64,000 bases of DNA from Escherichia phage RB16: sequence record NC_014467.1. One strand, 5' to 3'. Of the stretch, positions 3,266 to 46,909 are shown one piece after another. The translations under genes were made by a program, and so were the position numbers. The notes beneath the pieces are model-generated. The model was not told where the DNA came from, did not search any database, and was given only the letters and a program-made list of their open reading frames with translations. Each line of letters begins with the position of its first letter. Within the stretch, counting starts at the first letter, position 1.

Positions 3266-3879
3266 TTTGTGAGGGTGTCCATTTGTTTTGATTTTTCCAA
3301 CAGGGTTTTGATTACCGTATCCATCGCCTGTTCTGTATCACCATCATGATAGATGATCGCGGTTTGATGCAAACCTTTCACCAGACGATTGATAATGTAC
3401 GCCATTTCGGTCGGTAACAGTTTACCCGTTTTGTTGAATTTTTCAAACAGATTGAACAGTTCTTCGTTATTCCCTTTCTTACGGAAATTGAAGTTGTGCA
3501 TCCCAGACAGAAGACTATCCAGATACAGAACTGTTTTGTTATCAGAGCGGAGGTGTCCACCGATTTTGTAGTAGTTGCTGAAAACGTATGGTGCTTCACG
3601 AACATCATCGATGTCGAAACCAGCATCATCGATATTGCCTACGTGGGAGAAGAAATCCGCATCGTTATCGAACAGATTGATCGCGCCTTTCTTGTATGGG
3701 AATCCAGCCAGGTTAATGACTCCCTTTTCATACGCATCATCGTTATCAACGACAACGTATTCAGGAAGCATAGGGGCATATGGTTTGTTTTTGTCGTGGT
3801 TTTCGCGATACGCTAAAGGTTCAGCCAGATAGAGGATATCGCCTTGTTTGACTTCATCCCAAAAGATATTACGTGACAT
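3262..3879 (-). CDS. hypothetical protein (205 aa; start trimmed to MSRNIFWD to avoid overlap with upstream gene)
   Basis: ORF track 3262-4047 trimmed to the Met at 3879. Confidence 0.45.
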   Translation of the reverse strand: MSRNIFWDEVKQGDILYLAEPLAYRENHDKNKPYAPMLPEYVVVDNDDAYEKGVINLAGFPYKKGAINLFDNDADFFSHVGNIDDAGFDIDDVREAPYVFSNYYKIGGHLRSDNKTVLYLDSLLSGMHNFNFRKKGNNEELFNLFEKFNKTGKLLPTEMAYIINRLVKGLHQTAIIYHDGDTEQAMDTVIKTLLEKSKQMDTLTK

Positions 3880-3919
3880 ATTAAATTCCTCAACATGCCC
3901 CCTTTCGGGGGCTATATCA

Positions 3920-6139
3920 TTACAGTTTAACTTCTTTTTCTTCCAGGACGATTTCGCAATCGAATGTTGCACCTTCCCAGAACTTATGCGGGATAATGTC
4001 AGTCGCTTTAACCGATACTTTGGTTTCTTCAAAATCCATATCCGCAAACCAGGCGTGGCCTACAACGATACCGTACATTACACGGCTCAGGCGCTTGTTC
4101 AGTGCGCGTACTTCGTTGATGGTTGCCTTTGTTTCTTTATCAAGGTACTCGATTACCTTATCCTTGTCAAGCGCTGCGAGTTCAGCTTTAACAGCATCGT
4201 AAGCCCACAGGATGATCAGGTCGCCGTTGTTCAGTTTCTTCTTACCTTCGGCACGTTTCGCAACGGTTGCCGCTACAGCAGGAAGGGAGGAAACACCCTT
4301 GATTTTCAGATTCAGTTCTTTCGACATATAAACATCAGTCGAATCGGTACGGGTTACTTTCGGGGAGAATCCATAATCACGAATACCCTGTTCAGATAAC
4401 CATTCACCAGCGGCTTCACCGTATTTCTGTTTCAGACCTTCGGCATTACGTAAACCGATCGCGTCGTCACGGAAGAACTTCATCACCTTCTGGCGACCTT
4501 TCAGGATTTCCAGACGGATAGAGTCGTTTACATACTCTTTACCGGAGATCCCGCGAGTCATCGCACGGTTAACCAGAGGCAGACTTGTAAAGTCAACCAG
4601 AACCGACATACGGTCTTCACCGATTTTTGCCAGCGGCTTGATGGTCAAACCAGAAGCGCGGAGGTTTTTCAGTGTCGGAATATCAGTTTCCAGAGGCAGA
4701 ACTTTAACGTTTACGATACCGTCTTTAACGATGGTAAAGTTACGCACCTGCTTAGTTTCGATCTGTTCAGGCAGTCCCAGTTCTTTCTGTTTGCTTTCTG
4801 GGATAGTTACGTAACCTTGCAGATCCGTGTTAATGGAAATGTTAGGACGTGAACTGTTGCCGACCAGATGTTTAACCGATACTTTGGTTGTTGTCTGGGT
4901 AAATTTCGGTGTCCAGATTTCGTGCGTTACCATTTGTGCGGCTAATGCTTTGCGTTCTTCCGGTGTTTTCGCATTTGCGATCTGTTCTGACAGTTGATCC
5001 AGAGTATCATCTTCTTTCTGTACTGTCTGACGGCCTGTACGGTTGTACGCCCAGTGTTCAGAAGACAGGTCGATCACTGTGTCAGTTTCTGCCAGCAGTT
5101 CTAGAGCATCAACCAGAGTGAATGCGTTTTCGTCTGGAACCATGTTGTAATCAACACCTTCAATCAGACGTTTACCCGCATCAACTACCGCTTCCGCGAT
5201 CAGGTCTTTGGCGTTGGAATAATCCTGCTTAGTAAAGCAGTTATCGTAAGCCTTAATCAGACGAACGTCACCGACTTTTTTCAGCACTTTCCATGCCAGA
5301 TCAGGGTTCATGGTATGAAGTGCATGATACAGAACCACGTACAGAACCTGTTCACCTTCCATCGTAGCTGGATCAAATCCGTCGATATCGTTGATTGCGT
5401 TATCACCCAGCGCCCAGATGTTTTTGATATGCTCAGGAACCAGCACAACACCGTTTGCAGCGTTCAGGACATACACGCGCCCTTCGTCAATGTAGATCGC
5501 ATGGGTAGCATCACCTACTTTAACTTCAATACGCGCTGATGTTTGAGCGGTAATGATTTCAGCAAATGCTGGCTCGTATGCGTCGAAACCTTCAACGAAT
5601 TTATGCAATGCGTTGGTTGCTTCTGCCATTTTTTCCAGCAGAGGACGGTTAACATAGTAACCATATTCCAGGAACGCAATGCTGTTAAACGTCAGAGGGA
5701 GAACCGCACACGCTTTCAGGATGTCATCGGTACGCCAGCAGTTATCATAACCATCCGTCAGGAAGATCAGGCTGTTCAGGTTGCCGTTTTCGGATTGCAG
5801 GTCAGTTGCAATCTCAGCAGCCAGATTCAGAGGTTCGACGAAACCAGTACAACCAGTAGGTTTCAGATAACGGTCGATCGCGGTGCAGATATTGGTCAGA
5901 TCCGATACGTTGCTAACCTTCTCACCACGGAACACAGTACCGTAATCGCCTTTGCTGGAGAAGTACAGGATCGAAACAGTATCATCCTGTTTAACCAGGC
6001 TTGCCAGATTCGCTTTCAGGTGCTTACGAATTTTCGGCAATTCGCTGTACATTGAACCGGAAACGTCGCAAACGAAAACGTGGTTGGTCGGAGTCGGTTT
6101 AGATACTGCATTTTTGAATTCGATATTTGTAATTGACAT
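3920..6139 (-). CDS. von Willebrand factor A (vWA) domain protein, 739 aa
   Basis: N-terminal MIDAS motif VCDVSGSM (DxSxS) and downstream IFLTDGYDN; long C-terminal region of unknown fold. Confidence 0.7.
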   Translation of the reverse strand: MSITNIEFKNAVSKPTPTNHVFVCDVSGSMYSELPKIRKHLKANLASLVKQDDTVSILYFSSKGDYGTVFRGEKVSNVSDLTNICTAIDRYLKPTGCTGFVEPLNLAAEIATDLQSENGNLNSLIFLTDGYDNCWRTDDILKACAVLPLTFNSIAFLEYGYYVNRPLLEKMAEATNALHKFVEGFDAYEPAFAEIITAQTSARIEVKVGDATHAIYIDEGRVYVLNAANGVVLVPEHIKNIWALGDNAINDIDGFDPATMEGEQVLYVVLYHALHTMNPDLAWKVLKKVGDVRLIKAYDNCFTKQDYSNAKDLIAEAVVDAGKRLIEGVDYNMVPDENAFTLVDALELLAETDTVIDLSSEHWAYNRTGRQTVQKEDDTLDQLSEQIANAKTPEERKALAAQMVTHEIWTPKFTQTTTKVSVKHLVGNSSRPNISINTDLQGYVTIPESKQKELGLPEQIETKQVRNFTIVKDGIVNVKVLPLETDIPTLKNLRASGLTIKPLAKIGEDRMSVLVDFTSLPLVNRAMTRGISGKEYVNDSIRLEILKGRQKVMKFFRDDAIGLRNAEGLKQKYGEAAGEWLSEQGIRDYGFSPKVTRTDSTDVYMSKELNLKIKGVSSLPAVAATVAKRAEGKKKLNNGDLIILWAYDAVKAELAALDKDKVIEYLDKETKATINEVRALNKRLSRVMYGIVVGHAWFADMDFEETKVSVKATDIIPHKFWEGATFDCEIVLEEKEVKL

Positions 6140-9013: not shown

Positions 9014-9918
9014 AGAACTTTCCTTATCTGTTTGGCTATTGCCTCGATAACTGGCACGGAAACGGAGTTACCCGCTTGCTTGTATGCTTGTTTTTTACTC
9101 GATGGAATAATAAACGAATCTGGGAAGCCTTGCAAGCGAAAACATTCACGCGGGGTTAATCGTCGTGGGTTCTTCCCGTCCTGCAACACCAGACATTGAA
9201 CGCCGTCCTTGTAATATTGCGCGGTGATGGTTCCTGTGTGCGTAGAATCGGCTGTGACGGCCTGATAACCAAAGCCCTTACCGTTTGCCTTATTTCGTTC
9301 CTTACGCTCTCTAAAGCCTTTCCACGCGTTATCTGATAGAGTGTACGAATCATCAGCATCTTCGAGGATATCACCTACGCGCGTAGGGGTACGCGGGGGA
9401 ACCGGAAACGAAAAGAATACATCATCCAGGAAGCAGACAATGAACACGCGTTCACGTCGCTGGGGTAGTCCGAAATCTTTTGTATTCAGTCGCTGATAGA
9501 ATACGTTGTATCCTTCGGCCTCAAGAAGCCCGTAAATCGTTTTAAACGTCTTTCCCTTGTCATGGGTTAGCAATTCAGGCACGTTCTCAAAGAACAGCAC
9601 ACGGGGCTTTTTAGCGCGTATGATGCGGAGGATTTCAAAGAACACCGTACCGCGAGCATCATCAAATCCCAGTTTCAATCCGGCTTTACTGAATGCCTGA
9701 CACGGGAACCCAGCCAACAGGATATCGTGATCGGGTACTTTGTTTTCATCAATGGCAAACAGATCACCCTGTAGGTTATCGTCGCCCCAGTTTTCAATAT
9801 AGGTTTGCTGTGCGTGTTTGTCGATCTCAGACGTTAAAAGGCATTCGACCCCGCCGAATGCATTATCAAATCCAAATCGAACTCCACCAACGCCAGCGCA
9901 GAGGTCAATTATTTTCAT
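9010..9918 (-). CDS. DNA (cytosine-5)-methyltransferase, Dcm-like
   Basis: C5-MTase motifs in order: LCAGVGG (I), FPCQAFS (IV, catalytic Cys), ENV (VI), QRRERVF (VIII), GNSV (X). Confidence 0.85.
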   Translation of the reverse strand: MKIIDLCAGVGGVRFGFDNAFGGVECLLTSEIDKHAQQTYIENWGDDNLQGDLFAIDENKVPDHDILLAGFPCQAFSKAGLKLGFDDARGTVFFEILRIIRAKKPRVLFFENVPELLTHDKGKTFKTIYGLLEAEGYNVFYQRLNTKDFGLPQRRERVFIVCFLDDVFFSFPVPPRTPTRVGDILEDADDSYTLSDNAWKGFRERKERNKANGKGFGYQAVTADSTHTGTITAQYYKDGVQCLVLQDGKNPRRLTPRECFRLQGFPDSFIIPSSKKQAYKQAGNSVSVPVIEAIAKQIRKVL

Positions 9919-10178
9919 GCGTCGAAATCTATCTCGTCAATTTTGTAAGACTGTTCATCGATATCAGCCCACAGGGTGACTTTAACCGTTTTGCGGTCTT
10001 CGTACATGTCACGACCATCATAGCCGCCTACGTATTCGCTGTGCGTCTGTTCATCCACTTCCAAACGCAGACTATCGCGCATGATTTGGACAACAGCCTG
10101 TTCCATCGTAACAGAATCTGGGTGTTGTTCTGTGCCACCAACTCGAACATCTTTCAGGTGTAAAATAATATCAGACAT
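9915..10178 (-). CDS. hypothetical protein (87 aa)
   Basis: ORF track. Confidence 0.4.
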   Translation of the reverse strand: MSDIILHLKDVRVGGTEQHPDSVTMEQAVVQIMRDSLRLEVDEQTHSEYVGGYDGRDMYEDRKTVKVTLWADIDEQSYKIDEIDFDA

Positions 10179-10447
10179 CAGTTGCTACCCCACGTATAAA
10201 AATCAAATTTTTCGGTTTGCGCTTCTTCAACACGGATCACGTAATCACTGGTATCGTATTTGTCAGCGGTACGGAATTCAACCGAATACACACGAGCAAA
10301 CACAGCATAAAGCGCTTCGCGGATTTTCTCTGCGATCTCTTCATCGGTCTTATCGATATGCAACGTAAGCATATCGGAAACCACATCTTCAACGCGACGA
10401 ACATCACGCTTATCAATGTAACCAGTGTATAAATTTACTTCTTTCAT
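10178..10447 (-). CDS. hypothetical protein (89 aa)
   Basis: ORF track. Confidence 0.4.
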   Translation of the reverse strand: MKEVNLYTGYIDKRDVRRVEDVVSDMLTLHIDKTDEEIAEKIREALYAVFARVYSVEFRTADKYDTSDYVIRVEEAQTEKFDFYTWGSN

Positions 10448-11947: not shown

Positions 11948-12336
11948 TCTTCAATTCCCAAGATAGCAGCAATTGCTTTCAGGTTTTCGGTAGTGATTTC
12001 GGGAACATTCACAGTGTATGAATTACCGAACATAGGCTGAATTTTAGCACACAATTCTTTACGATACATCATTTCTTTATAATGTTCTTCACTGCGATAG
12101 ACAGTGTACCCCATCCATCCATCGGTTCGTCCAAATGTGCGGTCAATCTTTTCATTGGTGTACGATTTCGGATCGAAGGTTTCAGAAGTTGACGCATAGA
12201 TGTATTTTCTTGCTACTTTATGCACATACAGTGTGCGCGGTTTTCTGTTCTGTCTTGTATCAGAACGAATACCGCAATCATAAAGGGTATCGCCCACTTT
12301 CACATCAGATAAATTTCTCATTTCATTTTCCAACAC
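11944..12336 (-). CDS. hypothetical protein (130 aa)
   Basis: ORF track. Confidence 0.45.
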   Translation of the reverse strand: MLENEMRNLSDVKVGDTLYDCGIRSDTRQNRKPRTLYVHKVARKYIYASTSETFDPKSYTNEKIDRTFGRTDGWMGYTVYRSEEHYKEMMYRKELCAKIQPMFGNSYTVNVPEITTENLKAIAAILGIEE

Positions 12337-17794: not shown

Positions 17795-17999
17795 GTTTAG
17801 CCCGTTCCTCTGCTACCGCATCAAACACCGCGTCTTCAACTTCTTTTTCGACGAATGAAATGATTTCATCAACCATGCGATCGATGTATAATTGATTGAC
17901 ATTGCGCGAATCTGGATCATCTTCTGCTGCATAATCCTGGTAAAGTTCTCCCAGTTCTTTCAGCTTGTGCTTTAACACTTTTTCTTCTTGAACTCTCAT
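17787..17999 (-). CDS. hypothetical acidic protein (70 aa)
   Basis: ORF track. Confidence 0.4.
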   Translation of the reverse strand: MRVQEEKVLKHKLKELGELYQDYAAEDDPDSRNVNQLYIDRMVDEIISFVEKEVEDAVFDAVAEERAKHG

Positions 18000-18052
18000 T
18001 CTTTATTACCCATTTTATAGCCGATCCCAATGACCAGCCCCATCAAAATAAC

Positions 18053-18071
18053 CGCGCTTATCAAAAGCGCG
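18053..18071 (-). terminator. stem-loop CGCGCTT-ATCA-AAGCGCG
   Basis: 7-bp inverted repeat in intergenic gap. Confidence 0.35.
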
Positions 18072-18230
18072 AATTGTAGACCTATGCTCATTTAAATTGA
18101 TCGTCCCATAGTTGCCACGCTTCCAGTTCATCATTGTATTCAGGGAGTGAACGTTCCCCTGGTTTCTTGACGTAATACCAGATAATGATAGCAACGGCGA
18201 TAACAGTACCGTAAAAGATAATTAATCCCA

Positions 18231-18557
18231 TTAGTATAATCCTATTCCGGCGTTATATTCATCCACCAGATAGGTACGCAGTTTTTCGCAGCGTTCCTTA
18301 TTCGGTGCGCGGGTACAGAGTTTCATCATTGGTTCAGACTGCAAAAACTCACGCTGTTTAACCAGCTTCTGACGCTTATACAGGTGCGCATTTTCTTCGC
18401 CCCACACATAAGCCGCGTCGAGTTGTTCCGCGATCACCTGGTAACATACCGCAGTATCTTTAATGTCTCGATGGTCGCAGAGTTCAGACAGACGGTTGTC
18501 ATCAACAGCGAACACGGAACCAGAAACCAAAGTCAGCAACAGCGCAAGTTTTTTCAT
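18231..18557 (-). CDS. secreted small protein with 4 Cys (signal peptide MKKLALLLTLVSGSVFA)
   Basis: predicted signal peptide; periplasmic, possible superinfection-exclusion-type protein. Confidence 0.45.
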   Translation of the reverse strand: MKKLALLLTLVSGSVFAVDDNRLSELCDHRDIKDTAVCYQVIAEQLDAAYVWGEENAHLYKRQKLVKQREFLQSEPMMKLCTRAPNKERCEKLRTYLVDEYNAGIGLY

Positions 18558-18559
18558 TA

Positions 18560-18961
18560 TTACTCTCCCAGTACGTAAACAAAGCGGTCTTCGATTGAAT
18601 CGTTAACACATTCGTAAATTCCCCCAGCGCGTACAGCTTTACGAATGCCGGATTTTACGATTTCCATGATCTCTTTGTTGCTTCCCCATACATTCAAATT
18701 GAAGTATAGCGCACATTCGATTGGATAGTCTTCTACGTTGCGATACACATCATCACTTTCACATACAAACAGTATGCGCTTTTCTTCTCCATATTCGAAG
18801 TAAATGCTAAACGCGTTCATACTGTTTTTATCAACAGTGATTTGAGTGATTTTAACGTTCGGTTTGCTTTTGAGTTCAGCAAGAACACTCTGAATAATAG
18901 ATAACGCATTCAGTTTAATAAGTCCGCATTTTCCTACAATAACACGATGTGATGTACTCAT
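18560..18961 (-). CDS. hypothetical protein (133 aa)
   Basis: ORF track; preceded by promoter cassette. Confidence 0.45.
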   Translation of the reverse strand: MSTSHRVIVGKCGLIKLNALSIIQSVLAELKSKPNVKITQITVDKNSMNAFSIYFEYGEEKRILFVCESDDVYRNVEDYPIECALYFNLNVWGSNKEIMEIVKSGIRKAVRAGGIYECVNDSIEDRFVYVLGE

Positions 18962-18989
18962 AATTCAATCCTCAATAGTTGGTACACAC

Positions 18990-19024
18990 ATAATAAAAAA
19001 GCCCCTGCAAAAATGCAAGGGCTT
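18990..19024 (-). promoter_or_regulatory. terminator-hairpin/promoter cassette (-35 TTGCAT, 17-nt spacer, -10 TATTAT)
   Basis: minus strand GCCCTTGCATTTTTGCAGGGGC TTTTTT ATTATG. Confidence 0.45.
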
Positions 19025-19028
19025 TCGA

Positions 19029-19677
19029 TTAAATAATTTGCTTTTCTTCTAACAGTTTCGCGGTATGGTTAACCATGCGAGCATAATCACGGGCTTCTTT
19101 CTTCGTATACTTGAAGCCCGCGTTATAGCTTGCCAGCGCCTTTTTCAAGTCGCCTTTGTGGTAATCAAGCCAGTATTCCAGTTCATGAATGGCAAACTTA
19201 GAACCTCCCCGAAGGGATTCGAGCTTATTGATTACTACGCGTTTGGAATATGATTTATCCATCCGTGCGGAAGCACTGTTTACAGTGACTTGCCAACAGC
19301 CATAAGCATGATGACCTTTTTTGCCCTTTCCGGTGTTCTCACATGCGCGAGATTCGATCCAGGCGATAGCCGCTAAATGATATCCCAAACGTTTCGATTT
19401 TTCTTTTTTCAGCAGGTTTTGCAGTCGTTAGATCATAGTCGTTGCCAACTCTGAAAGCATACTCCAAAACCTTTTTCTGCTTTGGTGTAATTTCGTCCAA
19501 TTCCTTGACATATGCAGGGGCATTGGCTGGTGCTTTCTTGATCACTGTTGCCTGTTGAAGCGGAAGTGTTGACTGAACAGCAGGAAGTTTTTCGATGAAT
19601 TCTCCTAGCGGATCTGTCTTTGCGTGACCAGAAAAAGAGCATAAGAAAATGAAAGGTAGTATCCATTTGAATCTCAT
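19029..19677 (-). CDS. soluble lytic transglycosylase (SLT domain) split over two overlapping frames; frameshift or pseudogene
   Basis: ORF 19339-19677 gives signal peptide MRFKWILPFIFLCSFSGHA; ORF 19029-19388 gives catalytic LAAIAWIESR...AYNAG; overlap contains an A6/T6 run at 19404-19409. Confidence 0.5.
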
Positions 19678-20234
19678 GGGCTTTCCTTATTATAAAAAGT
19701 TCCAAAATTTAACAACGCTGATTTTTTATAAGCGTTGCTTGCTTCTTCAGGATCATCAAAAGATCCCAAGTAGGTTGCTTTACCATTAATGGTTATTTGA
19801 GCAATCCACTTTTCATTTATAGTATTCCAAGTAACACCGATAAAACCAGAAGTATTAGTTTTCATCATACTTTTCTTTTGCTGATTTTGAGTATTAGTCA
19901 CTTCTTGCAAGTTGTCAATACCATCACCAAAAGAAACACCTTTCTTATGATCAATCATAACAGGAAGAGTACCTGTAGATACATAATACACGATGCGGTG
20001 TCTTCTAAACTGCTTTCCTTTGAAGTTTATAACGGTATATCCATCTTTCCGCAAGGTTCCTGCAAAAGAACCAACTTTAATTTTTCGGTTAGTTGATTTT
20101 ATCCATACACACGTACCGGAAACAACGTCAACGCTGATATATTCAAGTAATTCATCAATCAGTTGTTTTTCTTCTGATAGTGTACGCTCTCCCCATCCAT
20201 AAGATTTAGTCATGTTTAATACCTTTTGTAACAA
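19674..20234 (-). CDS. HNH homing endonuclease with AP2-type domain (paralog of 11414-11947)
   Basis: FRRHRIVYYVSTGTLP...IDHKKG...DNLQ and SGFIGVTW...KWIAQI...LGSF...EEA. Confidence 0.7.
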   Translation of the reverse strand: MLQKVLNMTKSYGWGERTLSEEKQLIDELLEYISVDVVSGTCVWIKSTNRKIKVGSFAGTLRKDGYTVINFKGKQFRRHRIVYYVSTGTLPVMIDHKKGVSFGDGIDNLQEVTNTQNQQKKSMMKTNTSGFIGVTWNTINEKWIAQITINGKATYLGSFDDPEEASNAYKKSALLNFGTFYNKESP

Positions 20235-24730: not shown

Positions 24731-24994
24731 TTATTCGAAACGAATCGTGCTATTTTTGAAAAACATTCCAGAGCACACAGCACCAGCGATCGGTTTACCG
24801 TTTACGCCCGTAGCCGTAAATCCGGTTGCGTATGTATCCTTTTCAGAACAGGAAAACCAGCTATATCCTGTGAACTGAATATTCGAATACCCTTGCGCTT
24901 CCAGGATACGCTGTGCTTCTCGTTCGTCGGTACAGCTTGATTGCAATAGAACGAGAACCACAACCAGTAAGACACATCCAATAACTTTAAACAT
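24731..24994 (-). CDS. small lipoprotein-like/secreted protein (87 aa)
   Basis: hydrophobic N-terminus MFKVIGCVLLVVVLVLLQSSC with Cys after it. Confidence 0.4.
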   Translation of the reverse strand: MFKVIGCVLLVVVLVLLQSSCTDEREAQRILEAQGYSNIQFTGYSWFSCSEKDTYATGFTATGVNGKPIAGAVCSGMFFKNSTIRFE

Positions 24995-24996
24995 AA

Positions 24997-25473
24997 TTAC
25001 ACTCTTTTTAAGTTGGTTTTACTTGCTTGAACCCAGCTAACACCTAAAGAACCACAACGGAAACCGCTGATAGCACCGAGACATACAGTTGTATGACTGA
25101 AAGTGTTAGGTAAATCGACCTGGTTATCAGGAGAGATACCCAAATCATGTACGCTTACATCAGTTGCATACAGATAACCACCAGACACATACAGGGAATT
25201 GATCGAACCGAACGCGTCATTAGGCCATTTAAAACGGTATTTGTCGCCCCATAGCTCAACTTCATACACCTGATATTCATCGAACAGAGGATCGTTACCC
25301 TTCGTTGCTGTATAAAGAGCACTACGCCATTCATACAGCTTTGCTTCAATGTCACTAACATTGATTTCTTTACCAGCGCTTAAATCATCAAGCACTTGCT
25401 CAAGTTTGCGGATTGCTCCGCTTAATTCACAAGAAAGATTCATACAATACCCTCTTCTTTGAGCACTTCCCAA
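24997..25473 (-). CDS. hypothetical protein (158 aa)
   Basis: ORF track. Confidence 0.45.
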   Translation of the reverse strand: MGSAQRRGYCMNLSCELSGAIRKLEQVLDDLSAGKEINVSDIEAKLYEWRSALYTATKGNDPLFDEYQVYEVELWGDKYRFKWPNDAFGSINSLYVSGGYLYATDVSVHDLGISPDNQVDLPNTFSHTTVCLGAISGFRCGSLGVSWVQASKTNLKRV

Positions 25474-38702: not shown

Positions 38703-39388
38703 AATTCCCTCCGTTTACACTTATCACCATGCCAACGTTTAAACATACCCGGCCTGAAACTATTACCGCAGTATTGGCATTCCATTTTCTCTATATTTGA
38801 AACTGCTTCCCTTATGCGTATCTTTTGTTCTTCTGTTCGGGGTTTCCCCTTTCTAGCATCTGCTGATTTTTTTACTGCATCAGGGGGCATAGTTTTTCCT
38901 GAACATGAGATAGAAATTTTTTGTTTATGTTCTTCTGATAGAGATCTCCCTACCTTAGCGTTTCTCATCTTTTCTATAGACTGTTCGTTGAATAGCCCTG
39001 GTCGAGTTTTACCTTTCAATGGATTGACCCACCCATCTTTCATTTTGCGAGATTTACCTATTTTTGCTTTACTCATTTTCTCTCGCGTTTCGCTGGATGC
39101 TGTTGTGTATGATACCCCACCCTCCCCACCAATTTTTAAATTGTATGTGTGTTCCGATAGCACGAACTCGCGATTGACAAGTTCCTTTTCTTTATCATAC
39201 ATTTCAGAAGGGGTGTCAAACACATACAATATACTTTTTGTGAAGTTGTGTATGCCATATTTGGTTTGTGCTTTCAATAAAAGTTTACCAGACCCCATAT
39301 ACGAATCATTCACATCTGTGGTTGCATGTGCGCCGATATAAATTTTATCGTTGATATTGTTTTTAATCTGATAGACTAAATATTTCAT
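38699..39388 (-). CDS. GIY-YIG homing endonuclease (Seg-like)
   Basis: MKYLVYQIKNNINDKIYIGAH (GIY...YIG), conserved R/E/N downstream, NUMOD3-like EKMSKAKIGK / EKMRNAKVGR repeats; inserted between genes 2 and 4. Confidence 0.75.
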   Translation of the reverse strand: MKYLVYQIKNNINDKIYIGAHATTDVNDSYMGSGKLLLKAQTKYGIHNFTKSILYVFDTPSEMYDKEKELVNREFVLSEHTYNLKIGGEGGVSYTTASSETREKMSKAKIGKSRKMKDGWVNPLKGKTRPGLFNEQSIEKMRNAKVGRSLSEEHKQKISISCSGKTMPPDAVKKSADARKGKPRTEEQKIRIREAVSNIEKMECQYCGNSFRPGMFKRWHGDKCKRREL

Positions 39389-39858
39389 TTCTCGTACCCT
39401 TTCCATCCAAAAACACGTTTGAGGGTGTCTTCGGTTATGATCTTGAACTCCCATCCTTTTGCTTTACATGCAGCATTGGCGGCTTTCCATTTGTCTATAT
39501 TTATGGAGTAAACATAGAGAGCATCAACAAATTTCTTTTTGTTGTGAACGTTGTTGTTCGCTGGCTTAGGTGGGGGCAATGTTTCTTTCATCGGTTTGAC
39601 TTCCCATAGGTAGGTCACACCGTTATCCATCTCAACATAAAAATCCATGAAGTAACGCCGTCTTTTACCGTCTGCGTTGCTGAAATAAGGTATCACAACC
39701 TCTTCACTGTTCCAGCGTTTCACATGCGGATTCCTGTCAAGCCAGTTCATTATATATTTTTCCCAGCTTGACCGATACGTTATCTTTCGAGGATCGCCTT
39801 TATATTTTGTTATGTTCTGGGGCATAAAAGACCCCTTGTACGTCTGTCTTCCAGCCAT
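39385..39858 (-). CDS. 4: head completion protein gp4
   Basis: 157 aa, T4 gene 4 position. Confidence 0.7.
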   Translation of the reverse strand: MAGRQTYKGSFMPQNITKYKGDPRKITYRSSWEKYIMNWLDRNPHVKRWNSEEVVIPYFSNADGKRRRYFMDFYVEMDNGVTYLWEVKPMKETLPPPKPANNNVHNKKKFVDALYVYSINIDKWKAANAACKAKGWEFKIITEDTLKRVFGWKGYEK

Positions 39859-44318: not shown

Positions 44319-44996
44319 ATGAATTACGATAGGATATATAAAGCTCTTATAGATAAGCGGAGGAAAACTCCGCTTAAAGACGGATATAAGGAACATCATC
44401 ACATCATTCCTAAATCTATGGGCGGTAGTGATGATTTTGATAATATGGTGTATTTGACAGCGAGAGAACATTTCGTTGCGCATCTTTTACTCGCTCGTAT
44501 ACATGGTGGTAAGATGTGGTTTGCTGTTGCTATGATGTGTGGGCGTGGATCAAGTAGCGCGAAAGGCGTTGTCCCTACTTCTCGAATATATGAGTTAGCC
44601 AAAAAACGGGTAGCCAATGAAAGAAGTATATTGTTTTCTGGGAAATTACATCCATTATACGGAAAGCCTTGTACAGAACAACGAAGAAAACGCATAGCTG
44701 AAGGACGTAAAGGGAAAACGCATACTCAGGAAACGAAACAGAAAATGTCTGAATCGAAGAAAGGATATAAACATACTCAGGAGACGAAACAGAAAATGTC
44801 TGAGTCACGGAAGAGACAAACACCTCCTACTCTGGGTAAAAAGTTACCTTCTCCATCAATCGAAAAAAGAAAGAAACTTAGTGAGGCTATTAAAAATCAG
44901 CCAATCATCAAATGTCCATATTGCGGGTTAGAAAGTAACAGCAAAGGAAATATGGTGAGGTTTCATTTCGACAACTGCAAATATAGGAAACCATGA
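44319..44996 (+). CDS. HNH homing endonuclease (Mob-like)
   Basis: HNH core EHHHIIPKSMGGSDDFDNMVYLTAREHFVAH; internal duplicated HTQETKQKMSES motif. Confidence 0.8.
   Translation: MNYDRIYKALIDKRRKTPLKDGYKEHHHIIPKSMGGSDDFDNMVYLTAREHFVAHLLLARIHGGKMWFAVAMMCGRGSSSAKGVVPTSRIYELAKKRVANERSILFSGKLHPLYGKPCTEQRRKRIAEGRKGKTHTQETKQKMSESKKGYKHTQETKQKMSESRKRQTPPTLGKKLPSPSIEKRKKLSEAIKNQPIIKCPYCGLESNSKGNMVRFHFDNCKYRKP
44721..44807 (+). repeat. 35-nt near-perfect tandem duplication inside HNH gene
   Basis: CATACTCAGGA(A/G)ACGAAACAGAAAATGTCTGA(A/G)TC at 44721-44755 and 44773-44807. Confidence 0.8.
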
Positions 44997-46909
44997 TGGC
45001 TACAACTCGTAAGCAAATTAATCAGATCCCCGATATCTTTGTCGGGGCTACTTTTGACGAAATCAAATCTGACTTAATCAACTGGCTCCGAGGTCAGGAC
45101 GAATTCAAGGATTATGATTTCTCCGGCTCGCGCATGAACGTACTTGTGGATCTGTTATCATACTGTACACTGTACATTCAGCAAATGAGTAACACCGCAC
45201 TGTTCGAATCGTTTATTCGTACCGCTGCATTGCGTAGTTCTGTTGTCCAACAGGCTCAGGATTTGGGCTATATGCCGGACTCCCGTACCGCTGCAAATAC
45301 TGCGATCCTGATCACTGCGAAGAACCCACTGAACCCGACATCGATCCGTATTCCACGCGGTACGAAATTCATTGGTACAGTGAAAGAAACAAACAGTTTC
45401 CCGTTCGTCGTATCCGATGACGTGGTGATTGTTCGTGATAAAGACAATAACTATGTTTCGATGTTGAACATCGTACAGGGGCGTTTAGTCCGTACCGAAG
45501 TCATCTTTGATGGTTCTACGATCCTGATTCGAGATCCTAACATCGACCGTAGTCAGGTTCGCGTTACTGTCAACGGCGCTCAATGGGATGACTGGACAAA
45601 CGAAAGTATCGTAAACGCAACGGGCGCATCAACAATTTTCTACATGCGTGAAACTGTGGATGGACATACCGAAGTTTACTTTGGTGAAGGTGAAACCAGC
45701 CAACAGGTCGCAGGTGGTGCTCTGACTGCGGATTACATCGGTGGCTTGAAACCTGCAAACGGTTCAACCGTTGTTATTGAATATATTTCAACCAACGGCG
45801 AAGAAGCAAACGGTGCTGAAAACTTTGTCTACGTGGATACGTTGACAAACATTAGCATTACGAATATTGTTGAGAACCCGACTGATTCAGCGGACTATGT
45901 AGGCGCTGATGGTGGTGGTGAACCGGAAGATATCGAACGTATTCGTGAACTCGCGCCTATTATGCGTGAGACACAGCGCCGTTGTGTTACTGCATCGGAT
46001 TATGAATCGTTCCTGTCTCACCGTTTCGGTTCTGTTATTCAGGCGGTTCAGTGCTTTACTGATAAAGAAAAACCTGGCTATGCGTTCATCGCTGTTAAAC
46101 CGAAATCAGGGTTGCGCTTAACCTCTGTTCAAAAAGAGGACATGCAAAACTATCTGGCGAAGTATAACCTGGCGACTATTACGCCGTCTATCCTTGACCC
46201 GAACTACCTGTATATTGTACAAAGCGTTAAAGTAACGTATGATATCAGTAAGTTGATCGAGTCTGAGGAATGGTTGCGTGGTCAAGTAATCAATGAAATT
46301 GACAGATACTACACAGATAACGTTGAAATTTTCAACAAATCTTTCAGTAAATCCAAGATGTTGACTTATGTTGATAACGCGGACGTGTCGATCATTGGTT
46401 CTTCTGCGACTATTCAGCTATTGCGTGAACTGGATAACTATTACAGCGCCCCGATGTCTGGTATTCACTTCTTAAACCAGGTGAAATCACGTTCTGTTGT
46501 TTCGAATGGGTTCAAGTACACAAATGCTGCTGGTGATTCGTATGATGTGCGCTATGCGTCAACAGATATGAACACCACGACCGGACTCGCGAAAATGGTT
46601 ATCGGGCCATTCAAAAACGGTGATATCGGTATCGCAGCCTATACAGGAAACGATTTTGATAAATATCCTGGAGTAACCGATCGTGATAAATATTACGAAG
46701 TCGGCTATGTGGAACATTTTAATGATTTCATTAGTTTCGATCTTGGTGTCCTGAACGTTCCATCCGAGCGATTCAGCGCTGCTTACATCGAACTGACTGG
46801 TACACCTCTGGAAGAGAACATTTTCACCCGTGATGGTTCTCTGATTGTATTTGAAAACGATCTACGTCCTCAATATACAACGTTGACGATGAATCCAATC
46901 AGTCAATAA
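44993..46909 (+). CDS. 6: baseplate wedge protein gp6
   Basis: near-colinear with T4 gp6 as I recall it (IFVGATFDEIK...TRDGSLIVFENDLRPQY...PISQ). Confidence 0.95.
   Translation: MMATTRKQINQIPDIFVGATFDEIKSDLINWLRGQDEFKDYDFSGSRMNVLVDLLSYCTLYIQQMSNTALFESFIRTAALRSSVVQQAQDLGYMPDSRTAANTAILITAKNPLNPTSIRIPRGTKFIGTVKETNSFPFVVSDDVVIVRDKDNNYVSMLNIVQGRLVRTEVIFDGSTILIRDPNIDRSQVRVTVNGAQWDDWTNESIVNATGASTIFYMRETVDGHTEVYFGEGETSQQVAGGALTADYIGGLKPANGSTVVIEYISTNGEEANGAENFVYVDTLTNISITNIVENPTDSADYVGADGGGEPEDIERIRELAPIMRETQRRCVTASDYESFLSHRFGSVIQAVQCFTDKEKPGYAFIAVKPKSGLRLTSVQKEDMQNYLAKYNLATITPSILDPNYLYIVQSVKVTYDISKLIESEEWLRGQVINEIDRYYTDNVEIFNKSFSKSKMLTYVDNADVSIIGSSATIQLLRELDNYYSAPMSGIHFLNQVKSRSVVSNGFKYTNAAGDSYDVRYASTDMNTTTGLAKMVIGPFKNGDIGIAAYTGNDFDKYPGVTDRDKYYEVGYVEHFNDFISFDLGVLNVPSERFSAAYIELTGTPLEENIFTRDGSLIVFENDLRPQYTTLTMNPISQ

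Follow-up and report, generated by a model that had tools for sequence, protein, structure and literature searches.

Why does a predicted lytic transglycosylase of Escherichia phage RB16 occupy two reading frames? The window analysed here is a stretch of 64,000 nt of the RB16 genome (NC_014467.1; 176,788 bp). The sequence-only reading of its minus strand had proposed one lytic transglycosylase gene split at a homopolymer tract, and had offered a sequencing or assembly indel, a true pseudogene or a programmed frameshift as the cause. The two ORFs were found exactly as described there: a 5′ fragment at 19339..19677 (−) and a 3′ fragment at 19029..19388 (−), which overlap by 50 nt in different frames. 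The frame of the 3′ fragment is +1 relative to the N-terminal frame.

The 5′ fragment was identified from the ORF list, by alignment and by exact-sequence look-up as RB16p140, a 112-aa "hypothetical protein" in GenBank. Its product comprises 91 native residues, including a signal-like hydrophobic N-terminus (MRFKWILPFIFLCSFSGHA, read from the sequence only), and then 21 out-of-frame residues before the TGA stop. A Pfam domain search with this 112-aa ORF gave no match. The 3′ fragment is a mechanical ORF of 119 aa counted from a TTG, and it carries an SLT domain (PF01464, E = 5.4e-7, 29.6 bits, gathering cutoff 21.3). Inspection showed no Shine-Dalgarno sequence upstream of the TTG and no signal peptide after it. 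The GenBank product of this half is RB16p139 (19029-19262, minus strand; exact-sequence look-up), a 77-aa "hypothetical protein" starting MDKSY. It begins downstream of the codon for the putative catalytic Glu, and the annotated product therefore lacks that residue.

An A6 run of the minus strand (T6 on the plus strand) is present at 19404..19409, at nt 269–274 of the whole gene, where the 0-frame codons are GAA AAA AGA. It does not lie inside the overlap of the two ORFs, as had been supposed, but 16 nt upstream of the TTG, within a larger zone at 19342..19427 (−) in which both frames are open. This zone is bounded by the SLT-frame TAA (19428-19430) and the N-terminal-frame TGA (19339-19341), and any restoration of the frame is confined to it.

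The whole gene was placed at 19029..19677 (−) by alignment with Lw1, RB43, EC-F2, CfP1 and seven metagenome alleles, and by phrog_600 and SLT matches. In tblastn of the Lw1 protein gp147 against the window, residues 10–102 matched in frame −2 (E = 7e-53) and residues 90–215 in frame −3 (99% identity, E = 7e-83). Because the two ORFs match consecutive halves of this single protein, far more closely than chance would allow, they are, judged by homology, one conserved gene, vs.1; the locus name Vs.1 is used in the RB43 and Lw1 records. Deleting one A gave a repaired Vs.1 of 215 aa, which is 100% identical to Lw1 gp147 over residues 10–215. The repaired protein matched phrog_600 in a single continuous stretch (residues 55–215, E = 1.5e-51) and the SLT profile over residues 98–196 (28.5 bits, cutoff 21.3). 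No exact match to the repaired 215-aa sequence was on record. The putative catalytic Glu108, in a WIES motif, is invariant in all aligned relatives and is coded solely downstream of the frameshift. Besides this E-S motif, an AYN(A)G motif is conserved.

With 649 nt in RB16, the gene is one base longer than its 648-nt Lw1 counterpart, and the difference lies entirely in the extra A of the run. The run site reads GAAAAAAG (A6) in RB16 and GAAAAAG (A5) in Lw1, with otherwise identical flanks; the same site is GAAACGG in RB43, CfP1 and Miller, and GAATCGG in EC-F2. Over window positions 17996-19651 the alignment with Lw1 showed 99.0% identity, with the insertion as its only gap. Downstream of the insertion, RB16 and Lw1 differ by only two substitutions. 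Both are synonymous in the SLT frame, so this frame shows no decay. Relative to the closest allele, that of Lw1, the change is one base of length in a mononucleotide run, the pattern described by Streisinger. The position of the insertion, its uniqueness and the identity of the gene were demonstrated by these comparisons. It is thus highly probable that vs.1 was broken by a single extra A (A5 to A6) private to the RB16 record, and the proposed split of one gene at a homopolymer holds relative to the nearest allele, with intact genes in the relatives. The frameshift itself is an ordinary homopolymer lesion in a known conserved gene and represents no new biology.

The comparison with orthologues that had been suggested as a check found a single ORF in Lw1, RB43, CfP1, Miller, EC-F2 and seven metagenome alleles. 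In the five named phages vs.1 is a single CDS of 636–651 nt (648 nt in Lw1), and RB43-GVA also has a single ORF. Megablast with the RB16 region placed it among the T4-like phages of the RB43 group (Pseudotevenvirus); identity to Escherichia phage Lw1 was 99%. The phrog_600 membership of vs.1 goes together with a gene order shared with Lw1, RB43, CfP1 and Miller (beside vs, tk cluster). Homologues at the DNA level were found in 175 phage records, and the 60 rows sampled each showed a single feature except Klebsiella phage CPRSA. At the protein level (tblastn), the family extended to 1741 phage records including T4, in one piece in each sampled row. A search of a large protein database gave 19 homologues of 201–230 aa and one contig-end fragment. 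The seven metagenome alleles are intact 648-nt, 215-aa ORFs, six of which adjoin a homing endonuclease gene (HEG) identical in protein to that of RB16, and in each case the length difference from RB16 is a single base, located in the run. For every allele aligned nucleotide by nucleotide with RB16, this is the one position at which the frames part. Exact-product look-ups returned the truncated 112-aa product for RB16 only. No second copy of the A6 allele was found in IMG/VR (only Lw1, with A5), the JGI metagenomes or the complete E. coli genomes. It is the lesion that keeps RB16 vs.1 from being a single ORF like the other members; this is not a sign of a different family.

Klebsiella phage CPRSA (OM971648.1) is annotated with 483 CDS in 198 kb, and throughout the region retrieved its genes are fragmented. 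Three one-base indels are scattered over its vs.1, all at positions other than that of RB16. CPRSA is an error-ridden assembly, in contrast to RB16.

The gene is the same as Vs.1 of other T4-like phages (T4 vs.1; RB43ORF153c; Lw1_gp147; phrog_600). The T4 locus is 31.5% identical to RB16 Vs.1, and synteny is shared: the neighbour of the gene in both phages is vs, which encodes the valyl-tRNA synthetase modifier. RB16 shares the signal-peptide-plus-SLT architecture of T4-like Vs.1, and differs in having one extra A and the first 9 codons of the HEG-linked version. The gene is predicted to encode an exported protein with an SLT lytic-transglycosylase-like domain. Vs.1 resembles the SLT lytic transglycosylases (PF01464) in scoring above the gathering threshold of the profile and in its conserved WIES and AYN(A)G motifs, but it is a distant member (28–30 bits) whose activity is predicted from sequence. 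A PDB sequence search with Vs.1 gave no meaningful relative (best E = 0.6). Nolan et al. found Vs.1 conserved in each of the six T4-like genomes that they compared, and from a marginal SLT match they suggested a role in lysis, which is a domain-based guess (PMC1524935).

Some orthologues carry other labels. Vs.1 of Citrobacter phage Margaery, Salmonella phage Marshall and Escherichia phage APTC-EC-2A is named "endoribonuclease" or "RegB", and the note on Miller Vs.1 reads "RegB and lysozyme domains". Since SLT was the only domain detected, these labels look like a propagated misannotation. Some Vs.1 proteins in the 90%-identity cluster of RB16p139 are recorded as bacterial, namely WP_349043501.1 from a 2.6-kb contig of Brucella melitensis and MEI2421111.1 from a 394-nt contig of Arthrospira platensis; most likely, phage DNA contaminated these bacterial assemblies.

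Directly upstream of vs.1 lies an HNH-AP2 homing endonuclease gene, "RB16 HNH(AP2) 6" (RB16p141, 179 aa, 19674..20213, minus strand), identified by a domain match and exact-sequence look-up. Its TGA stop overlaps the ATG of vs.1 (ATGA). The HEG was inserted exactly at the vs.1 start codon of Lw1, and it took over the Lw1-type upstream region and ATG. In this part of the window (19652-20213, minus strand), RB16 has 558 nt in place of 22 nt of Lw1. After the HEG, vs.1 restarts with nine new codons (MRFKWILPF, compared with MKKIILATS in Lw1), which are common to all HEG-adjacent alleles. The HEG is identical in protein on 8 metagenome contigs, and the downstream vs.1 is complete in six of them and intact in all six. 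The body of vs.1 beside this HEG is CfP1-like on the metagenome contigs and Lw1-like in RB16. Such a pattern suggests that homing co-converted only a very short tract, about 33 nt long, and the replaced 5′ end of vs.1 may be the cleavage-immune target site. The HEG insertion was also considered as the cause of the frameshift and was rejected, since 235 nt separate the run from the end of the HEG-type tract (at about nt 33 of vs.1), and since the six other alleles beside an identical HEG are intact.

On the other side of the gene, an intrinsic-terminator-like hairpin (13 pairs and a T-run; 18997..19026, minus strand) lies directly past the vs.1 stop, and a terminator is annotated at the equivalent position in CfP1. 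The RB16 valyl-tRNA synthetase modifier (ADJ55441.1) was located at 18231-18557 by exact-sequence look-up. The same look-ups found the neighbouring proteins RB16p138 and RB16p142 on record. The window as a whole (1-64000) is a mosaic, with 99% identity to Lw1 around vs.1 and 81–97% elsewhere; the baseplate genes within it showed 95.5% identity to RB43, CfP1 and Miller. Weak matches to MobE of RB43 (26–29% identity) were found at window 44334-44981 (+) and 38714-38962 (−), and both lie where the window has no alignment to Lw1 (44321-45011 and 38717-39397). Free-standing HEGs were probably inserted at these two places as well, which would agree with the published count of 10 HEGs in RB16 (PMC2993671).

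Two of the three causes first offered, an indel in the record and a pseudogene, remain candidates for the origin of the extra A. Strand slippage on the homopolymer would have added it, either in the phage stock during replication or during sequencing and base calling. The odds between a real slippage mutation and a miscalled homopolymer are roughly even, because a lone private break with no decay fits a recent mutation of the laboratory stock and a single miscall equally well. No description of the sequencing method used for RB16 turned up in a literature search.

There is close to an even chance that base calling or assembly introduced the extra A into the deposited sequence, in which case the real phage would have an intact 215-aa Vs.1. 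An error would fit the intact state of vs.1 in all other high-quality genomes and the lack of decay in the downstream frame; miscalls, moreover, typically occur in homopolymers. The RB43 record AY967407, listed in the same T4-like genome survey, points the same way: at least five single-base homopolymer miscalls fall within 35 kb, as judged against the re-sequenced RB43-GVA and all relatives. However, the RB43 miscalls are all under-calls, whereas that in RB16 would be an over-call, and the 64 kb of RB16 contain no further such lesion, which indicates a low error rate.

The noise of the assembly was assessed by tblastn with the complete ORF sets of Lw1 and RB43 (of the RB43 ORFs, 148 had hits and 135 were clean and full-length). 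The only frame break private to the window in the 64 kb was that of vs.1; the assembly as a whole is therefore not riddled with errors. Frame changes relative to RB43 at window positions 1943, 8353, 10085/10101 and 22780 were considered as general homopolymer over-calling in RB16, and this was rejected. At all of these positions it is the old RB43 record that stands apart, because RB16 agrees there with RB43-GVA and, where aligned, with Lw1, CfP1 and Miller.

The RB43 record deserves a remark of its own. One base is missing from short homopolymers of AY967407 at at least five coding sites, compared with RB43-GVA, RB16, Lw1, CfP1 and Miller, and ORF113c/114c, ORF126c, ORF129c and ORF158c are split or truncated. 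The affected regions lie around 3687-4036, 9855-10363, 12020-12276 and 24990-25459 of the fetched RB43 stretch. The missing bases in AY967407/NC_007023 are probably sequencing errors.

Alternatively, with a chance a little short of even, strand slippage recently altered the DNA of the RB16 lineage or of a laboratory stock and turned vs.1 into a pseudogene, possibly a leaky one. In the Streisinger model, strands slip on homopolymers, as at the frameshift hot spots of T4 rII and the e gene, and one-base changes in A-runs are textbook spontaneous frameshifts in T4-type phages. The RB16 lesion resembles both these mutations and homopolymer miscalls in being a one-base change of a run with premature termination shortly downstream, and it is known here from the deposited record alone. 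The assembly is otherwise clean, and the window holds 51 A/T runs of at least 6 bases as possible targets. Loss of vs.1, an accessory and uncharacterised gene, would plausibly be tolerated in culture. A real mutation has to be set against the retention of vs.1 across some 1,700 phage genomes, a sign of selection in nature, and against the lack of any independent observation of the A6 allele.

Programmed recoding, by a +1 ribosomal shift at GAA-AAA-AGA or a slip of RNA polymerase that would set full-length Vs.1 against a short product, is very unlikely. Restoring the frame in RB16 vs.1 does require a +1 shift, and AAA-AGA offers a re-pairable P-site codon followed by a minority Arg codon (AGA makes up 10% of the Arg codons in the long ORFs of the window). 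By reading of the codons, a +1 slip here would give exactly the wild-type protein (...PAEK-EKSK...), with a predicted junction of TTAKPAEKEKSKR compared with PAEKRKIETFGISFSGYR for the 0-frame stump. The programmed +1 sites of prfB (CUU-UGA) and Ty1 (CUU-AGG) likewise pair a re-pairable P-site codon with a less-used codon. This likeness is superficial: the RB16 site is unconserved and has neither a stimulatory Shine-Dalgarno element nor a stimulatory structure, and the relatives are single-frame. The two-frame arrangement is absent from all relatives, and an A-run occurs besides RB16 only in Lw1 (A5, in frame); the other DNA-level homologues aligned have GAAACGG or GAATCGG. The upstream CCUGCUG contains no Shine-Dalgarno-like element on inspection, and the 84 nt downstream fold no better than shuffled sequences (z = +0.53). 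Efficient transcriptional slippage needs an A/T run of about 8–9 or more bases, and the run here has 6. No tRNA genes were found in the 64-kb window. The third cause that had been offered, a programmed frameshift, is thus effectively excluded, because both the arrangement and the run are unconserved, the shift needed is +1 and a stimulatory element is absent. A role of the A-run as a switch is just as improbable, whether low +1 slippage dosed full-length Vs.1 beside a secreted 112-aa product or reversible A5/A6 variation turned a periplasmic muralytic accessory protein on and off among the phages of a population.

That RB16p140 and RB16p139 are two genuine separate genes, as the two CDS of the public GenBank record have it, is scarcely credible, as they are consecutive halves of one conserved protein in an arrangement absent from any other genome, RB16p139 begins past the catalytic Glu, and the longer TTG ORF has neither a ribosome-binding site nor a signal peptide. 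Independent expression of the SLT part was rejected on the same grounds, its only start being that TTG.

The preferred reading is therefore a single vs.1 gene broken by one extra A. As the sequence is written, translation would stop 21 codons past the run and leave a 112-aa exported stump. The catalytic domain would be left with neither a signal peptide nor a credible start codon, and the gene would be inactive. If the A6 run is real, vs.1 would be effectively null, because the SLT part has only a TTG with no ribosome-binding site and no signal peptide. We speculate that the lesion may be leaky. AAA-AGA is a plausible weak +1 slip site, and some full-length Vs.1 is conceivable; at most, tRNA-Lys would on rare occasions slip +1 spontaneously on AAA-AGA and so restore the wild-type junction.

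In RefSeq and UniRef, RB16p139 and RB16p140 are currently carried forward as two "conserved hypothetical phage proteins". The annotation should be corrected by merging them and flagging the locus as a frameshifted vs.1 (pseudogene or sequence error). If the mutation is true, RB16 would be a natural vs.1 knock-out, which could be compared with Lw1 for the function of this uncharacterised SLT-like protein.
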